From an uncultured Rhodospirillaceae bacterium (GTDB lineage Bacteria > Pseudomonadota > Alphaproteobacteria > Dongiales > Dongiaceae): a stretch of 64,000 bases of DNA. Each line of letters starts with the position of its first letter. Position 1 is the stretch's first letter. The stretch spans positions 8,443 through 72,442 of the forward strand of contig CAZIUB010000044.1 in NCBI GenBank assembly GCA_964542425.1, in the 5' to 3' direction. A program made the translations under genes and the position numbers. The notes below the pieces were generated by a model that had not been told where the DNA came from, made no database searches, and saw only the letters and a list, made by a program, of their open reading frames with translations. Shown one piece after another: positions 4,005 through 60,956 of this stretch.

Positions 4005-4427
4005 CTAGCCCTCGTCCGATATCTGGCCGCGCATTCGTTTGATCTTGGCGCGGTGCTGTTTGCCCTCGGCACGCCTGCGCATGGCGGCGGGACCGGGCCT
4101 GGTCGGGCGACGGGGCGTTGGGCGCTCGGCCGCCCGGCGGATGAGGTTCAGCAATCGCTCCAGCGCGTCTTCGCGGTTCATCTCCTGCGATCGGTGGCGC
4201 CTGGCGGTGATGACGATAACCCCCAGCTTGCTCGCCGCCGACCCGGCCAGCGCCAGCAGCCGATCGCGCAGCTCCTCGGGCAGGGATGGCGAATGACGCG
4301 CGTCGAAGCGGAGTTGTGCGGCACTCGCCACCTTGTTCACGTTCTGCCCGCCCGGACCGCCGGCGCGGATGAATGTGAAGGTGATCTCGCCTTCGTCGAG
4401 CGAAAAATGGCGATTGACCTTGATCAT
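4005..4427 (-). CDS. arfB: Alternative ribosome rescue peptidyl-tRNA hydrolase ArfB
   Basis: GPGGQNVNK motif, RSQxxNR, basic C-terminal tail. Confidence 0.93.
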   Translation of the reverse strand: MIKVNRHFSLDEGEITFTFIRAGGPGGQNVNKVASAAQLRFDARHSPSLPEELRDRLLALAGSAASKLGVIVITARRHRSQEMNREDALERLLNLIRRAAERPTPRRPTRPGPAAMRRRAEGKQHRAKIKRMRGQISDEG

Positions 4428-8167: not shown

Positions 8168-8318
8168 CCAGTGCCAACTTTCGAAACGGCGTGATCCATG
8201 AAACGCTCCGGTGCTTCCACGAAAGTCGGGCCACATGTTGCCCAATGATGAGTCTCCCGCCGGCGGTTGCGGGCAGCGTCATTTGGCTCGATCAGCCAGC
8301 CACGACGGCGGGTACTAG
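8168..8318 (+). repeat. MITE-like repeat family A, copy A1
   Basis: CCAGTGCCAACTTTCG...CGAAAGTCGGGC...CCCGCC...GGCGGGTACTAG, 151 bp. Confidence 0.93.
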
Positions 8319-15819: not shown

Positions 15820-16347
15820 GTGTTCGTAACCGGATTGGAATTGGTGTTGAGCGAAAGGATCGCGCGCCTCATAACGCCTGCCATCGAGGCCATGGGCTTC
15901 GATCTGGTGCGTGTGCAATTGTCCGGGAGCCAGCGCCCGACCCTGCAGATCATGGCCGAGCCCGTGGATGGAAGGTCGATGTCGGTCGATGATTGCGCCC
16001 TGATCTCGCGCGCGATCTCGGCAATTCTCGACGTCGAGGACCCGATCGCGGGAGCCTATTCCCTGGAAGTGAGTTCGCCCGGTATCGACCGGCCGCTGAC
16101 CCGGCCCAAGGATTTCCGGCGCTACCAGGGTCACGCGGCCAAGATCGAGACCGACCAGCCGCTGGAAGGGCGCAAGAGGTTCAAGGGCAGAATCGGTGCC
16201 GTGTCGGAAGGGGCGGTCGTTCTCGATTGCGATGGCGAGGCGATCAGCCTGCCGATCGAGCGGATTCACAAGGCCAAGCTGGTGCTGACCGATTCCCTGA
16301 TCGCCGCCCACCAGGCGGGGCCAGCGCCAACTTTCGAAAATGTGTGA
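15820..16347 (+). CDS. rimP: Ribosome maturation factor RimP
   Basis: LEVSSPGIDRPL; exact start uncertain; stop codon lies inside repeat A2. Confidence 0.95.
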   Translation: MFVTGLELVLSERIARLITPAIEAMGFDLVRVQLSGSQRPTLQIMAEPVDGRSMSVDDCALISRAISAILDVEDPIAGAYSLEVSSPGIDRPLTRPKDFRRYQGHAAKIETDQPLEGRKRFKGRIGAVSEGAVVLDCDGEAISLPIERIHKAKLVLTDSLIAAHQAGPAPTFENV

Positions 16348-16471
16348 TCCATGAAACGCACCCAACGTTCCACGAAAGTCGGGCCGCATGTTACCAATTG
16401 ATGAGTCGCCCGCCGGCGCGCATTGGCGGGGTCGAATTGCGGAATCACCGATCCGCGACGGCGGGTACTAG
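16321..16471 (+). repeat. Repeat family A, copy A2
   Basis: CCAGCGCCAACTTTCG...GGCGGGTACTAG, 151 bp. Confidence 0.93.
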
Positions 16472-31485: not shown

Positions 31486-32145
31486 TCAATCGTCCTCGAC
31501 GATCTCGCCGTCACGCACGCCCCATAGGGCGTCGCGGGTGATCCAGCCGGAAAAATCCTGGATCTCTATCCGGCACCAGGGACCGATGCCACATTCGCGT
31601 AAGCCAGCGATCACTCCGGCTTCGAGATTGGCGATGGGTCTTGAATCCGGTTCGGGCCTGGCGCGGATTTCCCTCGTCTCGCCCACGATCTGGGCCATGC
31701 GCCGGCCCGATAGCAGATTCCGTTGCACCCAGCCGAGCGTTCCGTCGCGATCGCGGATGCGCCGCCAATTCTCGAATTCCTGGACGATCTCGACCGGCAA
31801 TCCCTTGCGCCGATAGACCCACAGGATCGGGTAATCCGTGCCCGGGCCGGCACGCAAATTGATTTCGCCGCTGTCCAGCGAGGCAAAGCGCGGCAAGGGC
31901 GCCTTGTTCTCCTCAGCCAGGCCCAAATGGGGCGAGAGAGCAATCGCGAGCACCAGGGCCAACTTTCGAAAAAACCTGATACACGACACATTCCGAGGCT
32001 GCCACGAAAGTTGGCACAGGTTGCCAAGTAGATAGTACCCGCCGACGTGTGCTGGCTGGATCATTGGGCTCGAATCAGCCAATCCCGCGACGGCGGGTCC
32101 TAGCAAGACCAGCCGCGATGTGCGCGCGGCGAATTCGAAACCCAT
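31486..32145 (-). CDS. Secreted bacterial SH3-domain protein with a 49-aa in-frame repeat insertion in its signal peptide
   Basis: LPRFASL, NLRAGPG..YPI.W, WRRIRD.DG..GWV; residues 16-64 are encoded by repeat A3. Confidence 0.85.
   Translation of the reverse strand: MGFEFAARTSRLVLLGPAVAGLADSSPMIQPAHVGGYYLLGNLCQLSWQPRNVSCIRFFRKLALVLAIALSPHLGLAEENKAPLPRFASLDSGEINLRAGPGTDYPILWVYRRKGLPVEIVQEFENWRRIRDRDGTLGWVQRNLLSGRRMAQIVGETREIRARPEPDSRPIANLEAGVIAGLRECGIGPWCRIEIQDFSGWITRDALWGVRDGEIVEDD
31953..32103 (+). repeat. Repeat family A, copy A3 (intragenic)
   Basis: CCAGGGCCAACTTTCG...CGAAAGTTGGC...GTACCCGCC...GGCGGGTCCTAG, 151 bp. Confidence 0.92.
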
Positions 32146-48720: not shown

Positions 48721-48874
48721 CCCGTACCCGCCGTCGTAAGACTGGATGATTCGAGCCAATTTGGCCCCGCCCGTGCACACCGGCGGGTGCTATCTATCTT
48801 GTGACATGTGGCCCGACTTTCGTGGAAGTTTCGGAGTGTTTCGTGTATCACGCGTTTTCGAAAGTTGGCACTGG
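48721..48874 (-). repeat. Repeat family A, copy A4
   Basis: Reverse-orientation copy, 154 bp; shares CTGG with B2. Confidence 0.92.
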
Positions 48875-49709: not shown

Positions 49710-50933
49710 ATGCGTTTCGCTAGTGTTGCGGTTCCAACGTTTGATGCCCAATCATTCCCGTTGGAACCACAACGCATGCCATTCCCATTTGCTAGTGTTC
49801 CGGGCCGACATGTCCCTAGAGCGGAATGTCGGTTGTGGAACACCAGGCGCGCGCGCCTTGCGCTGCTACTGGCGCTCCTCGGATGTGCTTCGCCGCCCCC
49901 GGCCCTCTCGGCAGTTCCCCTAACGCGCCTGCCCGGCTGGTCGGTCGAAGCCGTCGCGCGGGCGGCGCCGGCGTTGCTTTCCGGCTGCCAATTCCTGGCC
50001 GCACTCCCGGCCGATCAGGCACTGCCGGCGATCGCACCTGGGATGTCGGCCGAGGATTGGCGCCGAGCTTGCGCGGAATTGGTGGCGGCCTCCCACCAGG
50101 GCGACGCTGCTCTTGCCCAGCACTTCGCCGATCGATTTGTTGCCCTGGCGCCGGCCGATTCCGGTGTAGCGGCCCTGATCACAGGATATTACGAGCCCGA
50201 ATTCGCGGGAAGCCTGACGCCCGATTTGCAATATCGTTGGCCGCTTTACGCGTTGCCGGCGAGCCCCTTGCGCTTCGATCGCGCCGCGATCTCGGCGGGC
50301 GCGCTCGATGGACAGGGACTGGAGCTCCTGTTTCTCGCCGACCCGATCGATGCCTATTTTCTCCAGGTTCAAGGTTCGGGGCGCGTGCGCCTGCCCGATG
50401 GCAGGGTGGTGCGGCTTGGCTATGCCGGCAGTAACGGGCGCGACTATGTGGCGATCGGCAAGCCGATGGTCGAGGCCGGCCTGATCCCGAAGGACCAGGT
50501 GTCGATGCAATCGATCCGCGCCTGGTTGATGGCGCACCCGGAAAGCATCCAGCAATGGCTCGATCGCAATCCGCGCTATGTGTTCTTCCGCGAATATGAG
50601 GGCCCCGGTCCCGTGGGCGCCTTGGGCACACCCTTGACCGCGCTGGCCAGCGTCGCCGTCGATCCCGAATTCGTGGCCATGGGCACGCCCATGTGGTTGA
50701 ATGCCGCGTGGCCCGCGAATGCGCCAGGCCAGGCCAGGGGCGCGGCGCTGCAAATCCTGGTCGTGGCCCAGGACAAGGGCGGCGCGATCAAGGGGACGGG
50801 CCGCATCGATCTTTTCTGGGGCACTGGCGCGCTGGCCGAGGAAATGGCGGGGCGGATGCGCATCGAGGGCTCCTATTATCCGATCGTGCCCAGGGATTGG
50901 GCATCGCGCCAGGGCTGGTTGCCAGATTCATGA
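49710..50933 (+). CDS. mltA: Membrane-bound lytic murein transglycosylase A with a 41-aa repeat insertion in its lipoprotein signal
   Basis: TGYYEP, QVQGSG, NPRYVFF, AQDKGGAIKG..R.DLFWG; lipobox LLGC. Confidence 0.92.
   Translation: MRFASVAVPTFDAQSFPLEPQRMPFPFASVPGRHVPRAECRLWNTRRARLALLLALLGCASPPPALSAVPLTRLPGWSVEAVARAAPALLSGCQFLAALPADQALPAIAPGMSAEDWRRACAELVAASHQGDAALAQHFADRFVALAPADSGVAALITGYYEPEFAGSLTPDLQYRWPLYALPASPLRFDRAAISAGALDGQGLELLFLADPIDAYFLQVQGSGRVRLPDGRVVRLGYAGSNGRDYVAIGKPMVEAGLIPKDQVSMQSIRAWLMAHPESIQQWLDRNPRYVFFREYEGPGPVGALGTPLTALASVAVDPEFVAMGTPMWLNAAWPANAPGQARGAALQILVVAQDKGGAIKGTGRIDLFWGTGALAEEMAGRMRIEGSYYPIVPRDWASRQGWLPDS
49720..49846 (-). repeat. Repeat family B, copy B3 (intragenic)
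   Basis: Reverse copy bounded by CTAG and CCAG, 127 bp. Confidence 0.9.
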
Positions 50934-51688
50934 CCGGCTCCAGGCCTAGGGTTGGTTTGTTTGTCACTTGCCTGGTCGATTTCTATCGCCCGAGCGTCGG
51001 CTTTGCCGCCATCCGATTGCTGGAGAAGGCGGGCTGCGATGTCCAGGTGCCGGGAGTTCAAACCTGTTGCGGCCAGCCCGCCTACAATTCCGGCGATAGG
51101 CTGGGCGCTGCCCGGATCGCGCGCCAAATCGTAACGGCGTTCGACGGCTTCGAATACGTGGTCGCGCCGAGCGGCTCCTGTGCGGCGATGATTCGCCACC
51201 ATTTGCCCGATCTGCTCGCCGATGATTCCACGTTCGGGCCGGGTGCCCGCTCTCTCTCAGCCAGGACCTACGAGCTGACGCAGTTCCTGGTCGATGTCCT
51301 GGGCTGGGACAGGATCGAAACGAGCTGCCAGGCCAAGACGACCTATCACGATTCCTGCTCTTCCTTGCGCGAAATGGGCATCAAGGACCAGCCGCGCCGC
51401 CTGCTGGCTCGGGTCGCTGGGCTGACGCTCGTGGAATTGGCGGACGCGGAGGCGTGCTGCGGATTCGGTGGCACTTTCTGCGTCAAGTTTCCCGACATCT
51501 CGGCGCGCATGGCGGCGGAAAAGACCGCCAATGTCGTGGCCACCGGGGCCGATCTGGTGCTGGCCGGTGACATGGGCTGCCTGCTGAATATCGCCGGACG
51601 CCTCGCCCGCGAGGGTGGGAAGGTCAGGGTCCGACACGTGGCCGAAATCCTGGCCGGAATGATCGATCATCCCGCGATCGGGGAATAG
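50930..51688 (+). CDS. lutA: LutA/YkgE-family Fe-S protein
   Basis: FVTCLVD, CCGQP, YHDSC, CCGFGG. Confidence 0.88.
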   Translation: MTGSRPRVGLFVTCLVDFYRPSVGFAAIRLLEKAGCDVQVPGVQTCCGQPAYNSGDRLGAARIARQIVTAFDGFEYVVAPSGSCAAMIRHHLPDLLADDSTFGPGARSLSARTYELTQFLVDVLGWDRIETSCQAKTTYHDSCSSLREMGIKDQPRRLLARVAGLTLVELADAEACCGFGGTFCVKFPDISARMAAEKTANVVATGADLVLAGDMGCLLNIAGRLAREGGKVRVRHVAEILAGMIDHPAIGE

Positions 51689-51689
51689 G

Positions 51690-51839
51690 CCAATGCCAAC
51701 TTTCGAACAAGCGTGATCCATGAAACGCTTCGACGCTTCGGCGAAAGTTGGCATATGTTACCAAACGATAGTACCCGCCAGCGTGCACTGGCGGGGTCGT
51801 TTGGCTCGAATCAGCCAGTCCCACGACGGCGAGTACTAG
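51690..51839 (+). repeat. Repeat family A, copy A5
   Basis: 150 bp filling the lutA-lutB gap; ends CTAG 1 nt before the lutB ATG. Confidence 0.92.
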
Positions 51840-51840
51840 C

Positions 51841-53256
51841 ATGCAATCGACCGCGCATCTCTTGACCGACAATGCAAAGCGGGCCCTCGCCGACCAGGAG
51901 TTGCAGCGTGCGCTCGGCCATGTGCGGCGCAACTTCATCGACCGGCGTCAGGCGGCGATCGAGAAATTGCCGGAATTCGAATCCTTGCGCGATCACGCGC
52001 GCGCCATCAAGGATCACGTTCTCTCGCACCTCGACCAGTATCTGCTGCAATTCGAGGCCAAGGTCCTGGAACGTGGCGGCGAGGTGCATTGGTGCGCGAC
52101 ACCCGAAGCGGCCCGAGCCGCGATCCTGGGCATTTGCCGCAAGGCTGGCGCCGCGACCGTGACCAAGGGCAAGACCATGATCGGCGAGGAAATCGCCATC
52201 AACAGCCATTTGGAGGAAAACGGCATTCGCCCGATCGAAACCGATCTCGGCGAATACATCATCCAGCTGCGCGGCGAGACGCCGAGCCATATCATCGCGC
52301 CCGCCGTTCATGTCACCAAGCGCCAGGTCGAGGAAACTTTCCGTGCCCACCATGCCGATCTCGATCCGGCGCGCAATTTGCAGGAGCCGAGCTCGCTTCT
52401 CGCCGAAGCGCGAACCAGGCTGCGCGGGCAATTTCTTGCCGCCGATGTCGGCATCACCGGCGCCAATTTCCTGATCGCCGAAACCGGATCGACCGTGATC
52501 GTCACCAACGAGGGCAACGGCGATCTGACCCAGATGCTGCCGCGCGCCCATATCGTCTTGGCCTCGATCGAGAAGGTGGTGCCTACCCTAGAGGATGCCG
52601 GCACGTTGCTGCGGGTGCTCGCGCGATCGGCGACCGGGCAGGAGATGTCGGTCTACACCACCTTTTCCACTGGACCCAAGCGGCCGACCGATCTTGACGG
52701 TCCGGAGGAGTTCCATGTCGTGCTGCTGGACAACGGGCGCTCAGGCCTGCTCGGCACCGAATTCGAGGATTTGTTGCGCTGCATCCGCTGCGGTGCCTGC
52801 CTCAATCATTGCCCGGTCTATCACGCCATCGGCGGCCACGCCTATGGCTGGGTCTATTCCGGGCCGATCGGCGCGGTGCTGACGCCGGCCCTGATCGGGA
52901 TCGAGCATGCGGCACCCTTGGCCAATGCCTCCTCGCTTTGCGGGCGCTGCGAATCGGTCTGTCCTATGCGGATACCGATTCCCCGCCTGCTGCGCCAATG
53001 GCGCGAACGCGAATGGGCGCGATCGCTGGCGCCCAAGCGTGCCCGCTGGTTGCTGGCGATCTGGCGATGGATGGCGCTTCATCCGGCCTGCTATCGCTCG
53101 GTCACGCGGATTCTTGCCATCACATTGCGACTGCTGGCCGGCGGCAAAGGCCGGTTGCGCAAACTTCCCTTGGCCAAGGCCTGGTGCCAGGATCGCGACT
53201 TGCCGGTGCCGGAGGGCCGCACTTTTCATGACCGTTATCGGAAATCGCGCCGATGA
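51841..53256 (+). CDS. lutB: LutB/YkgF Fe-S protein
   Basis: ETDLGEYIIQL, CIRCGACLNHCP, LCGRCESVCP. Confidence 0.92.
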   Translation: MQSTAHLLTDNAKRALADQELQRALGHVRRNFIDRRQAAIEKLPEFESLRDHARAIKDHVLSHLDQYLLQFEAKVLERGGEVHWCATPEAARAAILGICRKAGAATVTKGKTMIGEEIAINSHLEENGIRPIETDLGEYIIQLRGETPSHIIAPAVHVTKRQVEETFRAHHADLDPARNLQEPSSLLAEARTRLRGQFLAADVGITGANFLIAETGSTVIVTNEGNGDLTQMLPRAHIVLASIEKVVPTLEDAGTLLRVLARSATGQEMSVYTTFSTGPKRPTDLDGPEEFHVVLLDNGRSGLLGTEFEDLLRCIRCGACLNHCPVYHAIGGHAYGWVYSGPIGAVLTPALIGIEHAAPLANASSLCGRCESVCPMRIPIPRLLRQWREREWARSLAPKRARWLLAIWRWMALHPACYRSVTRILAITLRLLAGGKGRLRKLPLAKAWCQDRDLPVPEGRTFHDRYRKSRR

Positions 53257-53897
53257 ACGATCGCGAGAAAATGCTGGGAGCGATCCGCGCGCGTGCGAAA
53301 AAGCTGAGACCCCACCCGGGCATGGGTCCGGTGCCGGCGCGCGGCAAGGTCGAGGGCAAGGCGCGCATCCGCCTTTTCCAATCGATGGCGAGCGAAGCGG
53401 CCGCGACACTCGCCGAAGCCGCCACCATGGCCGATGTTCCCGGGCTGATCGCGCAATATTTGCGCGAAAACAACCTGCCCGCGAGGCTGCGCCTGGCGCC
53501 CGATCCCCGCATCTCGGGCCTCGATTGGGCATCGCAGCCGCTCCTCGAAACCAGTACCGGCGCCAGCGATGGCAATGACCAAGCCTCGGTGACGCCCGCC
53601 TTGGCCGGATTGGCCGAAACCGGCACCCTCGCCCTCGGCTCCTCGCAATTGACGCCTGCCACGCTCAATTTCCTCCCGGAAACGCATATCGTGGTGGTTA
53701 GCGAGAACGAAATCGTCGGCACATTCGAGGAATTGTGGAGCCGCGCCCGAAGGGAAGTGGGGGCCGATTGGCCGCGCAGTCTCAATTTGGTGACCGGCCC
53801 CTCGCGTAGCGCCGACATCGAACAGACCCTGCTCATGGGTGCCCATGGGCCTAAGCGCCTGCACATCATCCTCGTGGCAACTTTCGAAAGATCTTGA
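53253..53897 (+). CDS. lutC: LutC/YkgG (LUD domain) protein
   Basis: AETGT, TGPSRSADIEQTL..GAHGP; stop lies inside repeat A6. Confidence 0.9.
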   Translation: MNDREKMLGAIRARAKKLRPHPGMGPVPARGKVEGKARIRLFQSMASEAAATLAEAATMADVPGLIAQYLRENNLPARLRLAPDPRISGLDWASQPLLETSTGASDGNDQASVTPALAGLAETGTLALGSSQLTPATLNFLPETHIVVVSENEIVGTFEELWSRARREVGADWPRSLNLVTGPSRSADIEQTLLMGAHGPKRLHIILVATFERS

Positions 53898-54020
53898 TCC
53901 ATGAAGCGCGCCGATGCTTCCACGAAAGTCGGGCCCCATGTTACCAATTGATGAGTCGCCCGCCGGGCTGCGCTGGTGGATACCATCGCCGATCCGCCCG
54001 TGTGCGACGGCGGGTACTCT
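53871..54020 (+). repeat. Repeat family A, copy A6
   Basis: CTCGTGGCAACTTTCG...GGCGGGTACTCT, 150 bp; abuts the IS left end. Confidence 0.9.
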
Positions 54021-54024
54021 TAAA

Positions 54025-55675
54025 CCCGCATTTCCCGGATAGGTTCGTTGTTTGATGCAGCGCGGCTATGATTCTGATGTAAGAATCAATGTGTTGACTG
54101 TGCCGGGGACGGCGCCGATGATGAACCCGACGGGTGAATCCGAGAATGAGTCTTTGCGGCTGGATTTCGACCATCGGCTCAAGCTGGATCTCCACGGTTG
54201 CAAGGTCACGTCCGACGCTGGACTGCTTGCTTACCGCGAACTCGATGACGCCCTCGGGTTGACCGGCATGGTCGGCGAGCAACTCGTTGATCCGCGTACG
54301 GGCAAAAACGGCCAGCACACAATGACGGGCTTGTTTCGCCAGTCCGTCTTCGGCCGCCTCGGCGGCTACGAGGACGTGAACGACGCCGACCGGCTGGAAC
54401 GTGATCCGGCGATACGTTGGATTGTCGGCGGTCGCGCCCTGACGATGCAGGCCGCATCCACCAGCCAGATGGGGCGCTTCGAGACAGAGGTGCTGACTCG
54501 GGCCGAGAACCAGGTGGCGCTGGCTGACCTGTCGGGACGCTGGATCGACACCGTGCATAGCCGCCGCCAGGTGAAGGCGGTGGTGCTGGACATGGACAGC
54601 AGCGTCAGCCCCACCTTCGGTGACCAGGAGGGAACCGCCTACAACGGCCACTTCGCCTGTACCTGCTATTACCCGCTGTTCGTGTCTAACCACTTCGGCG
54701 ATCTGGAGCGCTGCGCCCTTTGTCCGGGCAACGTCCACTCGGCCCATGGCTGGCGGGAGGTGTTGGAGCCGGTCGTGGCCCGCTATCGAGGCAGGTTCAA
54801 CCGCCGCTACTTCCAGGCCGATGCCGCCTTTGCGAACCCTGAGGTCCACGAGTTCCTGGAGGCCTAGGGCTTCAAGTACGCGATCCGGCTGCCTGCCAAC
54901 AACGTGTTGCACGACAGCATCGGCTACTTGCTCAAGCGCCCCTTCGGTTGCCCTCCCATCGAGGTCCGGCGGTACTACGCCAGCTTCAGCTATCAGGCCC
55001 AAAGCTGGAAGACGCCGCGCCGCGTGGTGGCGAAGGTCGAGTGGCACCCTGGCGAGTTTTATCCACGCGTCGGCTTCATCGTCACCAACCTGTCACGCCG
55101 GGCCGAGCGCGTCGTCGGCTTCTACAATCAGCGCGGCACGGCGGAGCAGTGGATCAAAGAAGGCAAGAACGCGATGAAGTGGACGCGGCTGTCATGCTGC
55201 TCGTTCGCCGCCAACGCGGTCCGGCTTCAGCTTCATGCGCTGGCGTACAATATCGCCAACTTCATGCGGACGCTGGCGTTGCCCGAGGCAGTCGCGCACT
55301 GGTCGCTGACCAGCCTCAGGGAGAAGCTCGTCAAGATCGGCGCCAGGATCGTCACGCATGCCCGGTACGTCATCTTCCAGATGGCCGAGGTCGCGGTGCC
55401 GAGGGAATTGTTCCAGGGAATCCCGCGGCTCATCGCGGAATTGAAGCCGCCGCCTATCGCGGCGCCAGCGTGAGACGTTCGACGGCCATTCGTACGGAGA
55501 GAAACGACGGGAGAGGTGCGCCTTGATGGCGGAAAATAGAGCCACCAGCGGCCTGGGAAGGCCATGTTTGACGGTCGTGGTAGCAACCGGCCGCCCGCAC
55601 CGTATTCCAGATTGCCGCAGGGAGCCCAAATGGCTACTCTCACACTCGGAACTGGGATTCATCTGGGAATGTCGG
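54025..55675 (+). mobile_element. IS1380-family insertion sequence
   Basis: IRL CCCGCATTTCCCGGAT, IRR ATCTGGGAATGTCGG; IS1380-type transposase inside. Confidence 0.88.
54118..55473 (+). pseudogene. IS1380-family DDE transposase with an in-frame TAG at 54865-54867
   Basis: TSDAGLL, GYEDVNDAD, LDMDS, YNQRGTAEQWIKEGK, ANAVRL; the two ORFs share one frame. Confidence 0.9.
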
Positions 55676-55699
55676 CTCAACCGATCGGCGGATGCGACG

Positions 55700-56707
55700 A
55701 TGAGCACGGATATGCTGCGAAACGAACCCGCACTCGTGCCGCTGGACGCGGCGGAAGTCTATGTCCTCGTCGATAACGTAAGCGATATCGCATCTTCCGT
55801 TCCCGCAGGGGTGACCGACGAAATACCGCTTCTGCTGAAGGCTGGAGCGAAGGAGTTCTCCGGGGAAAACCTCTGCTGCGCCTGCTGGGGGCTGTCGCTG
55901 CTGGTCACCGGGCGGACCGGCGATCGCGTCCATTCGCTGCTGTTCGACGGCGGGCCGGAGGCCTATGCCATCGACCGGAATGTGTCGCGCCTCGGCGTCG
56001 ATCTGGGCCGCGTCGAGGCGGTCGTGCTGTCCCACGGCCATACCGATCACGCAGGGGGGTTGATCGCGGCGTTGCAACGTATCACCCAAGAGAACGGCGG
56101 ACGGCCAGTTCCAGTCCACGTCAACCCCGGCATGTTTGAGCATCGAGGCGAATACAACGCAGACGGGAGCGTACTGCCTTACAAGGACGTGCCGAACCCT
56201 GCCGAGCTACGGCAAGCAGGCGGGCACATCGTGAACGAGAGCGGGGCCAGGCTCCTGCTCGACGATATGTTCTACCTGAGCGGCGAGATCCCGCGGGTGA
56301 CGTCATACGAAAAGGGCTTGCCCGGTCATTTGAAGCAAAATGCCGACGGCAGCGGGTGGGAGCCCGATCCCTGGATCAGGGACGAACGCTTCGTCGCCGT
56401 CAACGTTCGCAATGAAGGCCTCATCGTCTTTTCTGCCTGTTCGCATGCTGGCATCGTAAACGTGCTGACGCACGCCCGGGAGTTGTTCGATCCGGTGCCG
56501 ATCTACGGGGTAATGGGCGGTCTCCACCTTTCAGGTCGAGCGGGCGAGAAAATCATCCCGCAGACGGTCGAAGACCTCCGGGCATTCGATCCCAAGGTGA
56601 TCGTGCCCGGACATTGCACGGGGTGGCGCGCCACACACGCATTGGTAGATGCATTCGGAGACAAAGTCGTCGTGCCGTCCGCGGTGGGACGATTTCATGA
56701 GTTCTGA
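55700..56707 (+). CDS. MBL-fold metallohydrolase (COG1237-like)
   Basis: LSHGHTDHAGG, ACSHAG, GGLHL, PGHCTG. Confidence 0.9.
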   Translation: MSTDMLRNEPALVPLDAAEVYVLVDNVSDIASSVPAGVTDEIPLLLKAGAKEFSGENLCCACWGLSLLVTGRTGDRVHSLLFDGGPEAYAIDRNVSRLGVDLGRVEAVVLSHGHTDHAGGLIAALQRITQENGGRPVPVHVNPGMFEHRGEYNADGSVLPYKDVPNPAELRQAGGHIVNESGARLLLDDMFYLSGEIPRVTSYEKGLPGHLKQNADGSGWEPDPWIRDERFVAVNVRNEGLIVFSACSHAGIVNVLTHARELFDPVPIYGVMGGLHLSGRAGEKIIPQTVEDLRAFDPKVIVPGHCTGWRATHALVDAFGDKVVVPSAVGRFHEF

Positions 56708-56919
56708 TCCCCACGGTGCAGCTTCGGCTGTTTGGTTTGGCACAGAAACAGTCGCATGCGTGGCAAAGAGTCCCGAAGCATCCGCAATGGAGGAAGTCGA
56801 TGCAAGCGTCGGGGCGGCCTTTGGGCCAACGCACGCGACCCGGCCGTCGCTGGATCGCTTGAGAGGTTCGCCCGTACCATCTATTTCGCTACAATGCTCC
56901 CGCAGCGGGAGGTCCCTTC

Positions 56920-57447
56920 TTGCAGCGAGTACAGCGTAAGCTCGCGGCGATCTTGGCCGCCGACGTGGCCAAGTACTCACGGCTGATGGCGACCGACGAG
57001 GCAGGCACGCTAGCGGGGCTCAAGAGGCAGCGTGCCGAGGTGATCGGACCCCAGATCGCCGAGTTCGATGGCCGCATCGTCGGTTCCACCGGCGACAGCC
57101 TGCTTGTCGCGTTCGCAAGCGTTGTCAGCGCGGTCCAGTGCGCGGTTGAGGTGCAAGAGCGGCTGGCAGAGAGCAATTCCGGCTTGCCCGAAGATCAACG
57201 CATGGCTTTTCGCACGGGCGTGAATTTGGGCGACTTGATCGCCGAGGACGGCACGATCCATGGCGACGGCGTGAGTATCGCTGCGCGGCTGGAAAAGCTT
57301 GCGGAGCCTGGCGGTGTGTGCATTGCACGCAGCGTCCACGATCAGGTCAAAGGCAAGCTCGCCTACGCATACGCCGACCTCGGCGTGCAACGGCTCCATA
57401 ACATTCCGGATCCGGTGCGCGCCTTCCAGGTAATCCCGTTTAAATGA
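56920..57447 (+). pseudogene. Class III adenylate/guanylate cyclase domain, probably 3'-truncated
   Basis: RKLAAILAADVAKYSRLM, TGDSLL, GVNLGD, GDGV.IAARL; ends right after the catalytic domain at the TTAAA junction. Confidence 0.75.
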
Positions 57448-58001
57448 CTAGACGCGATCCGACCGACGAAGAATTGGCGCTGTGGCGGCTGATTGCCGCC
57501 GGGGCGCGCCCGCTGAAATCGCGCCGCAAGCGCAAGGCCCCGGCAAAATCCTCGCCCACCGCGCAATCCGCTGGTCCCGCTTCGGCCGGACCCGCGCCCA
57601 GGACGCCGCCAAGATCTTCGCCCAAACCCCAGCCGGCGCCGGGGGCGGAGACCGTGCTTGCCCATGGTCACGCCCCTGGCATGGACCGCCGCCAGGCCGA
57701 TCGTTTCCTCAAGGGCAAGATGACGATCGACGGGCGGCTCGATCTGCATGGCCACACCCAGGCCGAGGCGCATGACCGGCTGCTTGCGTTCCTGCGCCGT
57801 GCCCACGAGCGGGGCGGGCGTTGCATGTTGATCATCACCGGCAAGGGCATGACCGGCGGCACCGCGGGGGTGCTGCGCCAGGCGGTGCCGCGCTGGCTGA
57901 ACGAGCCGGCCTTTCGTCGGCTGGTTCTTGCTTTCGGCCATGCGCGCATGAAGGATGGGGGCGAAGGCGCGCTCTATGTCCTGCTCAAGAGGGCGAAATG
58001 A
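57444..58001 (+). CDS. Smr/MutS2 C-terminal domain protein
   Basis: IDGRLDLHG, IITGKG, GGEGALYVLL. Confidence 0.93.
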   Translation: MTRRDPTDEELALWRLIAAGARPLKSRRKRKAPAKSSPTAQSAGPASAGPAPRTPPRSSPKPQPAPGAETVLAHGHAPGMDRRQADRFLKGKMTIDGRLDLHGHTQAEAHDRLLAFLRRAHERGGRCMLIITGKGMTGGTAGVLRQAVPRWLNEPAFRRLVLAFGHARMKDGGEGALYVLLKRAK

Positions 58002-58369
58002 CCCCATTCGGCGAGAAACTGCGTCGCCTGCGTTCCGATCAGGGCCGCGCGATGAAGGACCTCGCCAGGGCGCTGAAGGTTTCTTCGGCCTATCTCTCGG
58101 CGCTGGAGCACGGCCACCGTGGCAAACCCTCGGCCGGCCTCGTGCAACAAGTCGCCGCCTATTTCAACCTGGCTTGGGACCAGGTCGACGAGTTGCGAAA
58201 CTTGGCGGAGATTTCCGACCCCAAGGTCACTATCGACACCGCCGGACTTTCGCCGCTGGCAACAGAGCTCGCCAATGTTCTGGCGAGCCGCATCGGCGTG
58301 CTGGACGAAGGGGCCCTCTCCGCGTTGCTGGCGGCGTTGCGCGGCCAAGCCAGTACCCGCCGTCGCTGA
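57998..58369 (+). CDS. XRE-family HTH regulator
   Basis: MTPFGEKLRRLR, VSSAYLSALEHG; stop lies inside repeat A7. Confidence 0.9.
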   Translation: MTPFGEKLRRLRSDQGRAMKDLARALKVSSAYLSALEHGHRGKPSAGLVQQVAAYFNLAWDQVDELRNLAEISDPKVTIDTAGLSPLATELANVLASRIGVLDEGALSALLAALRGQASTRRR

Positions 58370-58500
58370 TGGCCGATCCGCCGATATGAGGCCGCGAGAA
58401 TACCCCGGCGGGCGACTCATCATTTGGTAAGATACGGCCCGACTTTCGTGGAGGCTTGGGAGTGTTTCATGGATCCCGTATTTTCGAAAGTTGGTACAGG
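58350..58500 (-). repeat. Repeat family A, copy A7
   Basis: Reverse copy CCAGTACCCGCC...CGAAAGTTGGTACAGG, 151 bp. Confidence 0.9.
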
Positions 58501-58520
58501 GCGATGAAGGTGGGTCGACC

Positions 58521-59033
58521 TTGAAATTGGTGGCGATCGATTTCGAGACCGCGGATCATGGCGCCGACAGCGCGTGCGCCATCGGCTTGGTCGCCATCGA
58601 AGACAATCGGATCGCGAAGACGCGGGCGCTGTTGATCCGCCCGCCGCGTCGCGATTTCCGTTTCACCCACATCCACGGCATCACCTGGAATGACGTGCGG
58701 CGACGGCCTGGTTTTGCCCAATCCTGGCCGAAGATCGCCGAACTCCTGTCCGGCGCCGATTATCTGCTGGCGCATAACGCCGGCTTCGATCGGGGCGTTC
58801 TGCGCGCCTGCTGCGCTGCCTCCGGGATCGCCGACCCGGGTCTGCCTTTCGTTTGCACCGTACGGCTCGCGCGGGCGGCCTGGAACGTCCGCCCGACCCG
58901 ATTGCCCGATGTTTGCCGGCACCTCGCCATTCCGCTGCGCCACCACGAGGCACTCTCGGATGCCCGCGCCTGCGCCGAGATCGCGCTGGCGGCCATGGCC
59001 GACGGTATTGGCCTGGAGAGCGCGCGGATCTAG
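58521..59033 (+). CDS. DEDDh 3'-5' exonuclease (DnaQ-like)
   Basis: AIDFETA, AHNAGFD, HHEALSDA. Confidence 0.92.
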   Translation: MKLVAIDFETADHGADSACAIGLVAIEDNRIAKTRALLIRPPRRDFRFTHIHGITWNDVRRRPGFAQSWPKIAELLSGADYLLAHNAGFDRGVLRACCAASGIADPGLPFVCTVRLARAAWNVRPTRLPDVCRHLAIPLRHHEALSDARACAEIALAAMADGIGLESARI

Positions 59034-59239
59034 AGCGCTGTAGAATAGCCCCTTGTCGACCGGATGACGGAGTGATTCAACCCCAGAGGCAGCGGCACAT
59101 AATTCGACGGAGGGGGCGTCCGGCGATCGCGCTATTGTTCAGCTGGTTGGTGGTTCTTGGCATCGACAACGAAGTCTGGACCATCCGGTATTGTCGAAGA
59201 ACCGCGCCGGCTACATCCCCGAAAAGTGCTTCGCCACGT

Positions 59240-59755
59240 TCAGTCGGCCCATTTTGTCGAAAACTTGAGAGCGCGGGTCATTCCAAAGGTATCACAGCAC
59301 TGGACGCCCAACTTCTTGCAAACGTCCGGGATGCGTGAGTTTTGCCGTCTCTGACCGGGCTTTGAGGCTTCCGTTGTGACGACATATCGGTTGGCTGGTT
59401 CAGCCAACGCGTAGCCGATTAGAAACGGGTCGCGGCCAATTTGTTCGATCTCCTGGTCGGTGAGATCCGGCGCGTAGCCCTCTTGCAAGATTCTGGCAAC
59501 TAGTTTTCGATCGACTTCCTCGCCCGTCATAAGGATTGCAGCCTTGTTGTGATCGTCCTTGATCCACGAGTAGAGAGGATCGTCCTCGCCGTCTTTACTG
59601 CCGTCTTTCACTTCTTCGAACGTCTCAATAGGCATTTTGACGTTCCCGGCTTTTCCCTGATTTGCCAGCCAGGACCAAAACTCCGGGACGGTATCGACAC
59701 CATAGTACTGGTTGTTGGCGGTAATCAGCACATTGGCATCGAGGAGATACAGCAC
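59240..59755 (-). CDS. DUF4411-family PIN-like protein
   Basis: YLLDANVLI, FWSWL, DPFLIGYA, VVTTE, IPDVC. Confidence 0.85.
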   Translation of the reverse strand: MLYLLDANVLITANNQYYGVDTVPEFWSWLANQGKAGNVKMPIETFEEVKDGSKDGEDDPLYSWIKDDHNKAAILMTGEEVDRKLVARILQEGYAPDLTDQEIEQIGRDPFLIGYALAEPANRYVVTTEASKPGQRRQNSRIPDVCKKLGVQCCDTFGMTRALKFSTKWAD

Positions 59756-59756
59756 T

Positions 59757-60956
59757 CTAAGCGACCTTGACTTGCAAGGCCGCGCTACGCAGCAGGGAGC
59801 CGATGTTCCGGGGCTTCACGCCAAGGACTTTTCCTGCCTTTGTAGGCGTCATGGCACCCTCGCTCATGGTACGAGCAACGAAGTGCAGGAGTGCAGAGCC
59901 CAGTCGGTGCCGCCGCACGACGTAATAGTTTGGTCCGCCATCAGCCTGCCGCTCGCGAGAGCGGTGCGCCGCCCTCATTTCGAACCATTCATTGCGGAAT
60001 CGATCTTTGAGTTTCCGCCAATTGGCCTCGGTAAGGATTCCTTCTCGGAACAGCCGGTATGCCACCATGGAGCGGCTCAGCAGCCGCTCTTGCGCGAAGA
60101 TATTGATCCGCATAGCGGCGATCTCGGGCGACATGTCCCGCGTCACACCGGCTTCAGGCAGCTCGTTTCCGTGAAGAAGGAAATTGCTGGCGACATCATT
60201 GCAAAAACGCTCGACCTGAACGTCCGCGAACGCACCGCTGATCCCTGTGGTGCCCAACCATAGGTGCGCCAGCTCGTGCAGCAGCGAGAACGACCAAGCG
60301 GATTTAGAGTCTTGATCGTTAATTACTATAAAGGGTGCGATCGGGTCCGCCAAAGCGAACCCGCGAAAAGCTGATGCGTCAATGGCAGTGTGATGGCTAC
60401 CGAGGTTACCGATGAGCAAGACGAAGACGCCGAGGCGTTCGACCCGATCCCGCAAAAGCGTGAACGCGTTCTCTGGCTTCCCTTGGGCCCGGAACTCGGC
60501 CAGATCCAATTGCAAAGCTTTCCGTAATTCGGCCAGGGCGCTCCCGGCCCCGTCCGCCATGGCCATTGATCCGACGAATGCGATTGGTTGTGCGTCTTCG
60601 TCGGCCTCTATGACACTTCGAACCATCGCCTGGCGGGCCCGAATGTCGCGGACCAACGCATCAACGAGAGGTTCGGCAATTGTATTGCGCTCGGGGGCGG
60701 GCCTGAAATCCTCACCTCTATCCCCTCGCGGCGGCGGTGCATCCATGTAAAAAGTGACGAGAGGCCTGTGATAGAGTTTGGCCATCTTTAACAGCAAGGG
60801 ACGGCCTACCGGTTCACCGTCCTCGAGTTTCTTCAATCGCTCAGGGCCAGGAATACCCCTCGCTTCTCGAATGCAGAGCTTGCCTGCGGCGGCCTCGATC
60901 GTGAGGCCGGCGGTTTCTCTCGCCCAAGTGAGTATCCTCGGTTGGACAATTGGCAT
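59757..60956 (-). CDS. XRE-HTH fused ImmA/IrrE metallopeptidase
   Basis: N-terminal HTH (LTWARETAGL), FRGFAL, HELAH zinc motif. Confidence 0.88.
   Translation of the reverse strand: MPIVQPRILTWARETAGLTIEAAAGKLCIREARGIPGPERLKKLEDGEPVGRPLLLKMAKLYHRPLVTFYMDAPPPRGDRGEDFRPAPERNTIAEPLVDALVRDIRARQAMVRSVIEADEDAQPIAFVGSMAMADGAGSALAELRKALQLDLAEFRAQGKPENAFTLLRDRVERLGVFVLLIGNLGSHHTAIDASAFRGFALADPIAPFIVINDQDSKSAWSFSLLHELAHLWLGTTGISGAFADVQVERFCNDVASNFLLHGNELPEAGVTRDMSPEIAAMRINIFAQERLLSRSMVAYRLFREGILTEANWRKLKDRFRNEWFEMRAAHRSRERQADGGPNYYVVRRHRLGSALLHFVARTMSEGAMTPTKAGKVLGVKPRNIGSLLRSAALQVKVA

Follow-up and report, generated by a model that had tools for sequence, protein, structure and literature searches.

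A decayed IS1380 element with an MBL-fold gene and a truncated cyclase between lutC and smr of an uncultured Rhodospirillaceae bacterium: a probable one-ended transposition unit

How did an insertion sequence (IS), an intact gene for a protein of the metallo-beta-lactamase (MBL) fold and the severed start of a nucleotide cyclase gene come to lie between lutC and smr in an uncultured Rhodospirillaceae bacterium (assembly GCA_964542425.1)? We analysed 64,000 nucleotides of its contig CAZIUB010000044.1 (positions 8,443 to 72,442, forward strand), referred to here as the window, in which these three genes fill a block of 3,415 bp between two copies of the word TTAAA. The block contains one copy of an IS1380-family element and no second IS. 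Our analysis suggests, with a probability of about 85%, that it is a one-ended IS1380 transposition unit, or transposable module (TMo), which was inserted as one piece and has since decayed. The features on which the argument rests are as follows.

53253..53897, plus strand: lutC (LUD domain, PF02589), the left host flank, adjoining smr in relatives.
53874..54018, no strand assigned: copy of a dispersed ~145-bp repeat at the lutC/smr junction, outside the unit (blastn).
54020..54024, plus strand: left TTAAA, a putative 5-bp target duplication, read from the sequence and fitting the flank bias of related copies.
54025..54041, plus strand: left inverted repeat (IRL) of the IS1380 element, placed by a full-length alignment with the G097 copy; related copies start alike.
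54118..55473, plus strand: pseudogene of an IS1380-family DDE transposase with a TAG at 54865-54867 (codon 250); NF033539 and PF13701 match both halves.
55612..55640, plus strand: predicted promoter of the sigma70 type (TTGCCG-17-TACTCT), directed outward in the right end of the IS; the motif occurs in related right ends.
55660..55675, plus strand: true right inverted repeat (IRR), by alignment lacking one base that the C124 and G097 copies have.
55676..55680, plus strand: CTCAA, the presumed relic target of an earlier insertion upstream of the MBL gene; the junction recurs at L049 in G480 and the word fits the target bias.
55700..56707, plus strand: intact gene for an MBL-fold metalloprotein of the Tflp/TM1679 type (COG1237-like), 335 aa, assigned by sequence and fold matches.
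56920..57447, plus strand: 5' fragment of a class III nucleotide cyclase gene, 175 aa, TTG start with GGAGG (PF00211, 3mr7).
57423..57439, plus strand: putative alternative right end, inside the cyclase coding sequence, from end-likeness scores.
57440..57444, plus strand: right TTAAA, read from the sequence.
57444..58001, plus strand: smr (Smr-domain endonuclease, PF01713), the right host flank, intact and syntenic in relatives.

The boundaries of the block are marked by a word that is scarce in this genome. TTAAA is found 405 times in 3.4 Mb (63% GC) when both strands are counted, or 5.9e-5 per position, and 4 times on the plus strand of the window. The right copy coincides exactly with the end of the cyclase homology and the start of smr: its final A opens the smr ATG, and the same TTAAA gives rise to the cyclase stop TGA (57445-57447), which overlaps that ATG as ATGA. 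The putative duplication restores the smr start codon, and the overlap might couple the translation of smr to that of the cyclase fragment. The left copy is not the tail of the dispersed repeat beside it, since the consensus of that repeat ends in GGTACT(A/G)G. A preliminary description of this DNA, made from the sequence alone, had placed both TTAAA copies at these positions and had read CTCAA after the IRR, and all of its coordinates are correct.

The IS itself occupies 54025-55675 (1,651 bp). Its ends are fixed because a full-length relative in G097, from another genus of the same family and with an open transposase, aligns at 87% identity over exactly this interval; relatives measure 1,647-1,688 bp and have the same ends. 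The best plasmid relatives are Microvirga IS1380 elements (74% nucleotide identity), and IS1247 is 68% identical over 75% of the IS, so that on sequence comparison we regard the element as a distinct, IS1247-like member of the IS1380 family. It shows the family's single DDE transposase of ~450 aa (interrupted by one TAG), length of ~1.65 kb and short imperfect inverted repeats. On NF033539, whose cut-off of 180 bits is meant for the whole protein, the two parts of the transposase reach 174.8 and 174.0 bits and together cover positions 2-417 of 419; PF13701 is above its cut-off. The 4-5-bp duplication of the family is present as TTAAA at the IRL and the alternative end, and is absent at the true IRR. 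Its length of 5 bp agrees with the CTTTG duplication of the relative L256 and with the value listed for IS1247.

Directly before the right TTAAA stands TTCCAGGTAATCCCGT (57424-57439), which agrees with the reverse-complemented IRL at 10 of 16 positions, the count that the preliminary description had also given. The 17-mer at 57423-57439 shares 10/17 positions with the reverse complement of the IRL and 12/17 with the IRR of a related element. A weight matrix that was derived from 27 ends of related elements, without those of the window itself, ranks it first among the 405 17-mers adjacent to TTAAA, and only 2 of the 405 sites have an adjoining match of at least 10/16. Only 0.13% of genome positions score as high as it does; in absolute terms the site is weak. 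The combination of TTAAA with an end-like 17-mer is beyond chance, unlike the 10/16 match alone.

These figures also bear on the possibility of two independent events, in which the MBL gene and the cyclase fragment arrived first, by illegitimate recombination or through another element, the IS later entered between the dispersed repeat and the MBL gene, and the pair of TTAAA words arose by chance. Matches of 10/16 are common and the alternative end finishes in T, as such a history would allow; most related copies are also without a perfect duplication, and TTAAA and CTCAA, which are 3/5 alike, could be a decayed one. Two events would nevertheless need a word of frequency 5.9e-5 at the exact edge of the cargo, after the best end-like 17-mer of 405. 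They would also have to accommodate the junction of IRR, CTCAA and MBL gene in another genome, which makes CTCAA the upstream DNA of the MBL gene rather than the target at this locus. We consider this history very unlikely.

The cyclase gene is cut at the boundary. What is left is the N-terminal domain of a cyclase-TolB-TPR protein, cut just after the catalytic domain. The preliminary description had recognized the cut and set it after PVRAFQV; in fact the homology runs two residues further, to FQVIP, and the fragment ends in FQVIPFK. As that description had expected, homologues continue past this point: all 16 that are at least 60% identical do so, to 274-593 aa, and the best long homologues are mostly of ~580-600 aa with a TolB-like/TPR C-terminus. 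Of 15 paralogues in the genome 13 reach a stop at 291-736 aa, and the other two are cut by the ends of their contigs. Short homologues extend 9-135 residues beyond the cut in 44 of the 47 scored, and three end within 5 residues (two of these have no contig on record and one ends earlier); there is no evidence among the 47 of a natural stop at the cut point. An active class III cyclase has two metal-binding Asp residues and a transition-state Asn/Arg pair. In the fragment Asp15, Asp59 and Arg123 are kept and Asn119 is replaced by Ser; it is likely to be inactive because that Asn is common to 173/173 homologues. Class III cyclase genes of this type number at least 16 in the genome, and several stand in tandem pairs.

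The cyclase sequence also speaks to a second alternative, namely that the block is what remains of two IS copies. A composite transposon, or a circle of IS and cargo that recombined into a resident IS, could have lost its second IS by deletion and kept a degenerate end. Stacked or partial IS1380 ends are common (contig C33 of G000 has two IRRs and G480 three remnants), and the 17-mer resembles an IRR of the family at 12/17 positions. That 17-mer is, on the other hand, in-frame cyclase sequence, in which QVIP fits the R/G-V/L-x-P pattern of the homologues, and the deletion would need to have been exact to the base at this end. A two-copy origin is in our view highly improbable.

If the block was inserted as a unit between lutC and smr, relatives are expected to have the two genes adjacent. 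A match to Smr was obtained in 12 of the 13 genomes of the genus, and the loci of 11 of these and of 8 other genera were compared. The lutC-smr gap is 2-17 bp in all 11 same-genus loci and 2-65 bp in seven of the eight others, the eighth having mltA next to smr; none of these 11 same-genus and 8 other-genus loci contains a transposase, MBL or cyclase gene. The empty site that the preliminary description had predicted therefore exists as an arrangement of genes in 11/11 same-genus loci, although a single TTAAA was not found there, and its refuting case, an MBL gene and a cyclase beside smr with no IS, was not seen in these 11. In this genus lutABC (50912-53897) lies between mltA and smr; L016 has an uninterrupted tim44-mltA-smr-HTH order.

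An assembly chimera, with halves of the IS from different copies and unrelated loci joined, might also produce such a locus. In the source runs the interior of the IS does fragment into many short contigs among related elements, and no listed piece spans the whole stretch. All junctions, by contrast, are bridged by single Logan contigs with 0 differences: the left junction (53481-54187; 52500-54187), the IRR-MBL-cyclase stretch (55607-57367) and the cyclase-smr junction (57339-59000) by contigs of the runs X1 and X2, and the TAG by one X1 contig. The depth of the junction-bridging contigs is alike, 10-13 in X1 and 7-9 in X2. X1 and X2 are the probable source samples and so are not independent evidence; the runs X3-X6, X9 and X14 cover only parts of the stretch, and the parts that they leave uncovered are uninformative. 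The outer flanks, lutC and smr, are moreover neighbours in relatives, and we regard a chimera as extremely unlikely.

How the cargo was assembled is suggested by related copies. The junction of IRR, CTCAA and MBL gene recurs at locus L049 of G480, where the MBL gene, the nearest relative with known surroundings, is 87% identical and is not followed by a cyclase. The similarity begins in the IRR and ends 45 bp past the MBL stop, and the DNA upstream of the IRR differs; judged by this pattern, the right end at L049 would stem either from another insertion into the same target or from an exchange of ends. L049 is the only one of 159 MBL loci examined with a clear upstream IS end, in an ungapped end test that scores the window's own shortened IRR low. 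Weak hints come from runs of other studies: a 198-nt contig in X5 is identical across the IRR-MBL junction, and two contigs in X6 start their exact match at 55676. The cargo was probably captured in two steps, the MBL gene first and the cyclase later, because the IRR-CTCAA-MBL junction exists elsewhere without the cyclase. In the genus the MBL gene is patchy (3/13 genomes, at 43-44% identity), and its relatives at 94% are known only from contigs of 1.3-2.3 kb.

We therefore propose, for the one-ended unit, a likely order of events. First, an IS1247-like element would have entered at CTCAA, 24 bp in front of the MBL gene, and would likely have given that gene an outward promoter. The pair of IS and MBL gene probably then came to sit upstream of a cyclase-TPR gene of ~590 aa. 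The DDE transposase would have paired the IRL with the IRR-like 17-mer inside that gene, and the whole piece would have been inserted, likely in a single jump, at a TTAAA lying across the start of smr, with duplication of the 5 bp. The transposase and the cyclase fragment would have decayed afterwards, the MBL gene being kept intact.

Several observations weigh against this history or fail to support it. A match of 10/16 taken alone is at chance level; the stretch 54030-60000 has at least 7 further sites with 10-11/16, the true IRR included. A site inside the MBL gene (ending at 55845) scores slightly above the alternative end, which finishes in T (...CCCGT) and so is without a 3' G; passages of PMC12116815 suggest this base as crucial for the alternative ends of ISEcp1. 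No such requirement is known for IS1247-like elements; the absence of the G weakens the claim of an ISEcp1-identical end, not the claim at the level of the family. An intermediate alternative end between the MBL and cyclase genes is absent from the 12 best-scoring sites. No cyclase adjoins the MBL gene on the same strand in any of 151 MBL loci with at least 800 bp downstream, some of which are duplicates, and neither a second copy of the whole unit nor a donor with MBL and cyclase genes was found in 83 genomes of the family, two draws of 401 genomes from the class, 80+80 MBL loci and a protein database. No empty site was found at the nucleotide level, the relatives having neither the repeat nor TTAAA; the site is seen at gene level only because these relatives are distant, with Smr 54-61% identical. 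A joint that skips the unit was not found among the joints shown for 8 runs. The preliminary description had also drawn on the missing duplication at the true IRR. It is indeed absent, but this is uninformative because 13 of 14 related copies are likewise without a perfect one; in a single copy the 5 bp at its two ends are a perfect duplication (CTTTG, L256), and in four they match at 4/5. The flanks of related copies have T at position 2 in 24/28 and A at position 4 in 22/28, a preference that TTAAA and CTCAA both fit. Finally, the signs of decay given below do not separate the transposase from the MBL gene significantly (Fisher p=0.09 and 0.32), and host genes in this long-branch genome likewise show an excess of private changes.

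At invariant columns the transposase has 16 private changes; ten of 11 intact relatives have 2-6 and the eleventh has 15. At columns invariant in four relatives the transposase has 24/313 changes, versus 5/294 in its closest relative; the corresponding figures for the MBL protein are 7/188 and 9/190. With the TAG, which the preliminary description had reported and which we confirm at 54865-54867, the other substitutions and an IRR one base short, the unit is, as judged from its sequence, dead in cis. The inference that the TAG fixes the cargo in place holds in cis only; movement in trans could be conceived because the IRL is intact and pieces of IS1380 elements stand at the ends of contigs C74 and C113. 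No intact IS1380 transposase is assembled in the genome, where such pieces end at contig edges, and those on C74 and C113 could be parts of an unassembled intact copy.

The right end of the IS may serve as a promoter. A TTG-17-TANNNT motif occurs in 16 of the 28 right ends examined (related sequences, with two pairs from the same genomes), against 5% of random 70-mers; the spacer is 17 bp in every case, and the distance to the IS end is 63-67 nt. A scan for strict consensus promoters gave nothing outward. On the motif, the predicted promoter would likely drive the MBL gene. Solo right ends with a promoter-like motif are present at L246 3071-3298 (G021), with GGGGAGG and an ATG directly after, and at L241 5126-5313 (G097).

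Other remnants and candidates were seen among the related copies. The island of G480, in which L297 (minus strand) continues into L049 1-3330 through a 55-base overlap, has three remnants of IS1380 right ends, CTCAAC coming after each of them, together with genes for GFA, an alpha/beta-hydrolase and MBL. The island is flanked by a duplicate, ~210 bp long and 95% identical, of the 3' part of a DUF4202 gene. At ~4315-4377 of G000:C33 two different IS1380 right ends are stacked 46 bp apart. G000:C124:13546-14309 is a 764-bp, internally deleted sister element (90%) with both inverted repeats and the flanks GTAAA and ACAAA, possibly a non-autonomous derivative. No convincing alternative end was found for the C124 and L242 copies in 2.3 and 5.4 kb. 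A possible second module in G097, where TTTAC lies 3,717 bp beyond the IRR with a match of 10/16, was rejected on its poor matrix score of -8.3. IRR followed by CTCAA was dismissed as a general feature of the group, being found in 2/83 genomes with one mismatch by a pattern that misses the window's own shortened IRR. Matches to the IRR in viral contigs (32 loci, none with transposase homology) were taken as chance.

The passenger that remains intact is not a beta-lactamase: its best score is 30.4 bits against a curated cut-off of 240, and beta-lactamase folds give template modelling (TM) scores of ~0.3 versus 0.69 for Tflp. By both sequence and fold it is most like Tflp (2p4z), TM1679 (3h3e) and Tw9814 (7dck), at 20-23% identity only; the predicted fold has a predicted local distance difference test (pLDDT) value of 82 and TM scores of 0.69/0.83 to 2p4z. 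The motifs HxHxDH, CSH and HC are invariant, and the protein has both cysteines described for Tflp, one at motif 4 and one after the motif-5 His. In passages of bioRxiv 2020.04.16.045138, Tflp, which carries these two cysteines, is reported to bind Fe-S. By analogy our protein may act in redox chemistry and not as a hydrolase; the preliminary description was right that the unit holds an IS, an intact MBL gene and a cyclase cut at the boundary, and its label of hydrolase may need to be changed. The JGI name (dihydropterin ... synthase) is an automatic label.

Two further features of the window and genome stand apart from the unit. The dispersed ~145-bp repeat, GTGCCAACTTTCG...GACGGCGGGTACT, gives 299 blastn matches genome-wide, 83 of them close to full length. 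The copies often form tandem arrays, lie between genes and extend into the ends of genes, and one of them supplies the final codons of lutC. Copies in the window lie at 53874-54018, 58352-58493, 16328-16469, 8171-8263, 48767-48871, 51694-51794 and 31960-32061. The repeat has no Rfam match and no match in the relatives' loci examined, and folds no better than shuffles (z -0.6). A repeat finder run on 52000-60000 displayed it, gave mostly chance pairs otherwise and did not recover the inverted repeats of the IS; an Rfam scan of 53700-58700 gave 0 matches. At 59240-60956 on the minus strand, between exonuclease and aconitase genes, an IrrE/ImmA-type metallopeptidase gene (PF06114) is paired with a DUF4411 gene in a stretch of lower GC (56-59%), which looks like another acquired module.

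The capture mechanism is already described for the IS1380 family. Passages of PMC9330008 describe transposable modules, the misrecognition of ends and an outward promoter in ISPme1, and parts of PMC3281130 give TMos and a 5-bp duplication (Table 2) for IS1247. As in the Paracoccus TMos of ISPme1 and IS1247/IS1247a, our block has a single IS, cargo at its 3' end and a misrecognised right end; the duplication is as in IS1247 and the outward promoter, here predicted, as in ISPme1. One IS, cargo downstream of its IRR, a duplication around the whole and an IRR-like end before the right TTAAA are all present. The element differs from the Paracoccus modules in being distinct, in its broken transposase and its cargo, and in having been seen once and never trapped moving. 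ISEcp1 (ISEc9) units, in passages of PMC12116815 and PMC13654711, combine an IRL with a weak alternative IRR (3-12 identical bases) and a 5-bp duplication, and in ISEcp1-blaCTX-M-55-delta-orf477 the last gene is truncated. Our unit resembles them in all these respects, whereas its inverted repeat sequence differs, its alternative end is without the 3' G and its cargo is not a resistance gene. The ISEcp1-style model of the preliminary description thus stands as a family mechanism, but the alphaproteobacterial IS1247/ISPme1 module (68% nucleotide identity to IS1247) is the nearer model. On pSHV3 of Sphingobium herbicidovorans MH an IS1380 element carried yfcG, gstB and a partial rutE into the chromosome, according to passages of PMC5737581; that case is likewise alphaproteobacterial, with non-resistance cargo and a cut last gene, and has four identical copies compared with one decayed copy in the window.

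We speculate, as a rather doubtful extension, that the IS1247-like group moves with cargo as a rule in environmental Alphaproteobacteria, its right ends persisting as portable promoters once the transposase is lost and building, step by step, integron-like strings of ends and genes, of which the window would be a snapshot with an Fe-S-type MBL protein as the selected passenger. Cargo as a rule is suggested because 13 of 14 copies are without a duplication at their own right end, and strings of genes because G480 holds three right-end remnants ahead of GFA, the hydrolase and the same MBL gene. On the reading that we prefer, the locus is a clean natural case of one-ended gene capture by an IS1380 element outside the clinic, with boundaries that are readable from synteny, and it draws attention to a Tflp-like protein as a passenger found repeatedly with IS elements. 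The machinery that spreads blaCTX-M would thus also shuffle ordinary genes in sediment Alphaproteobacteria.

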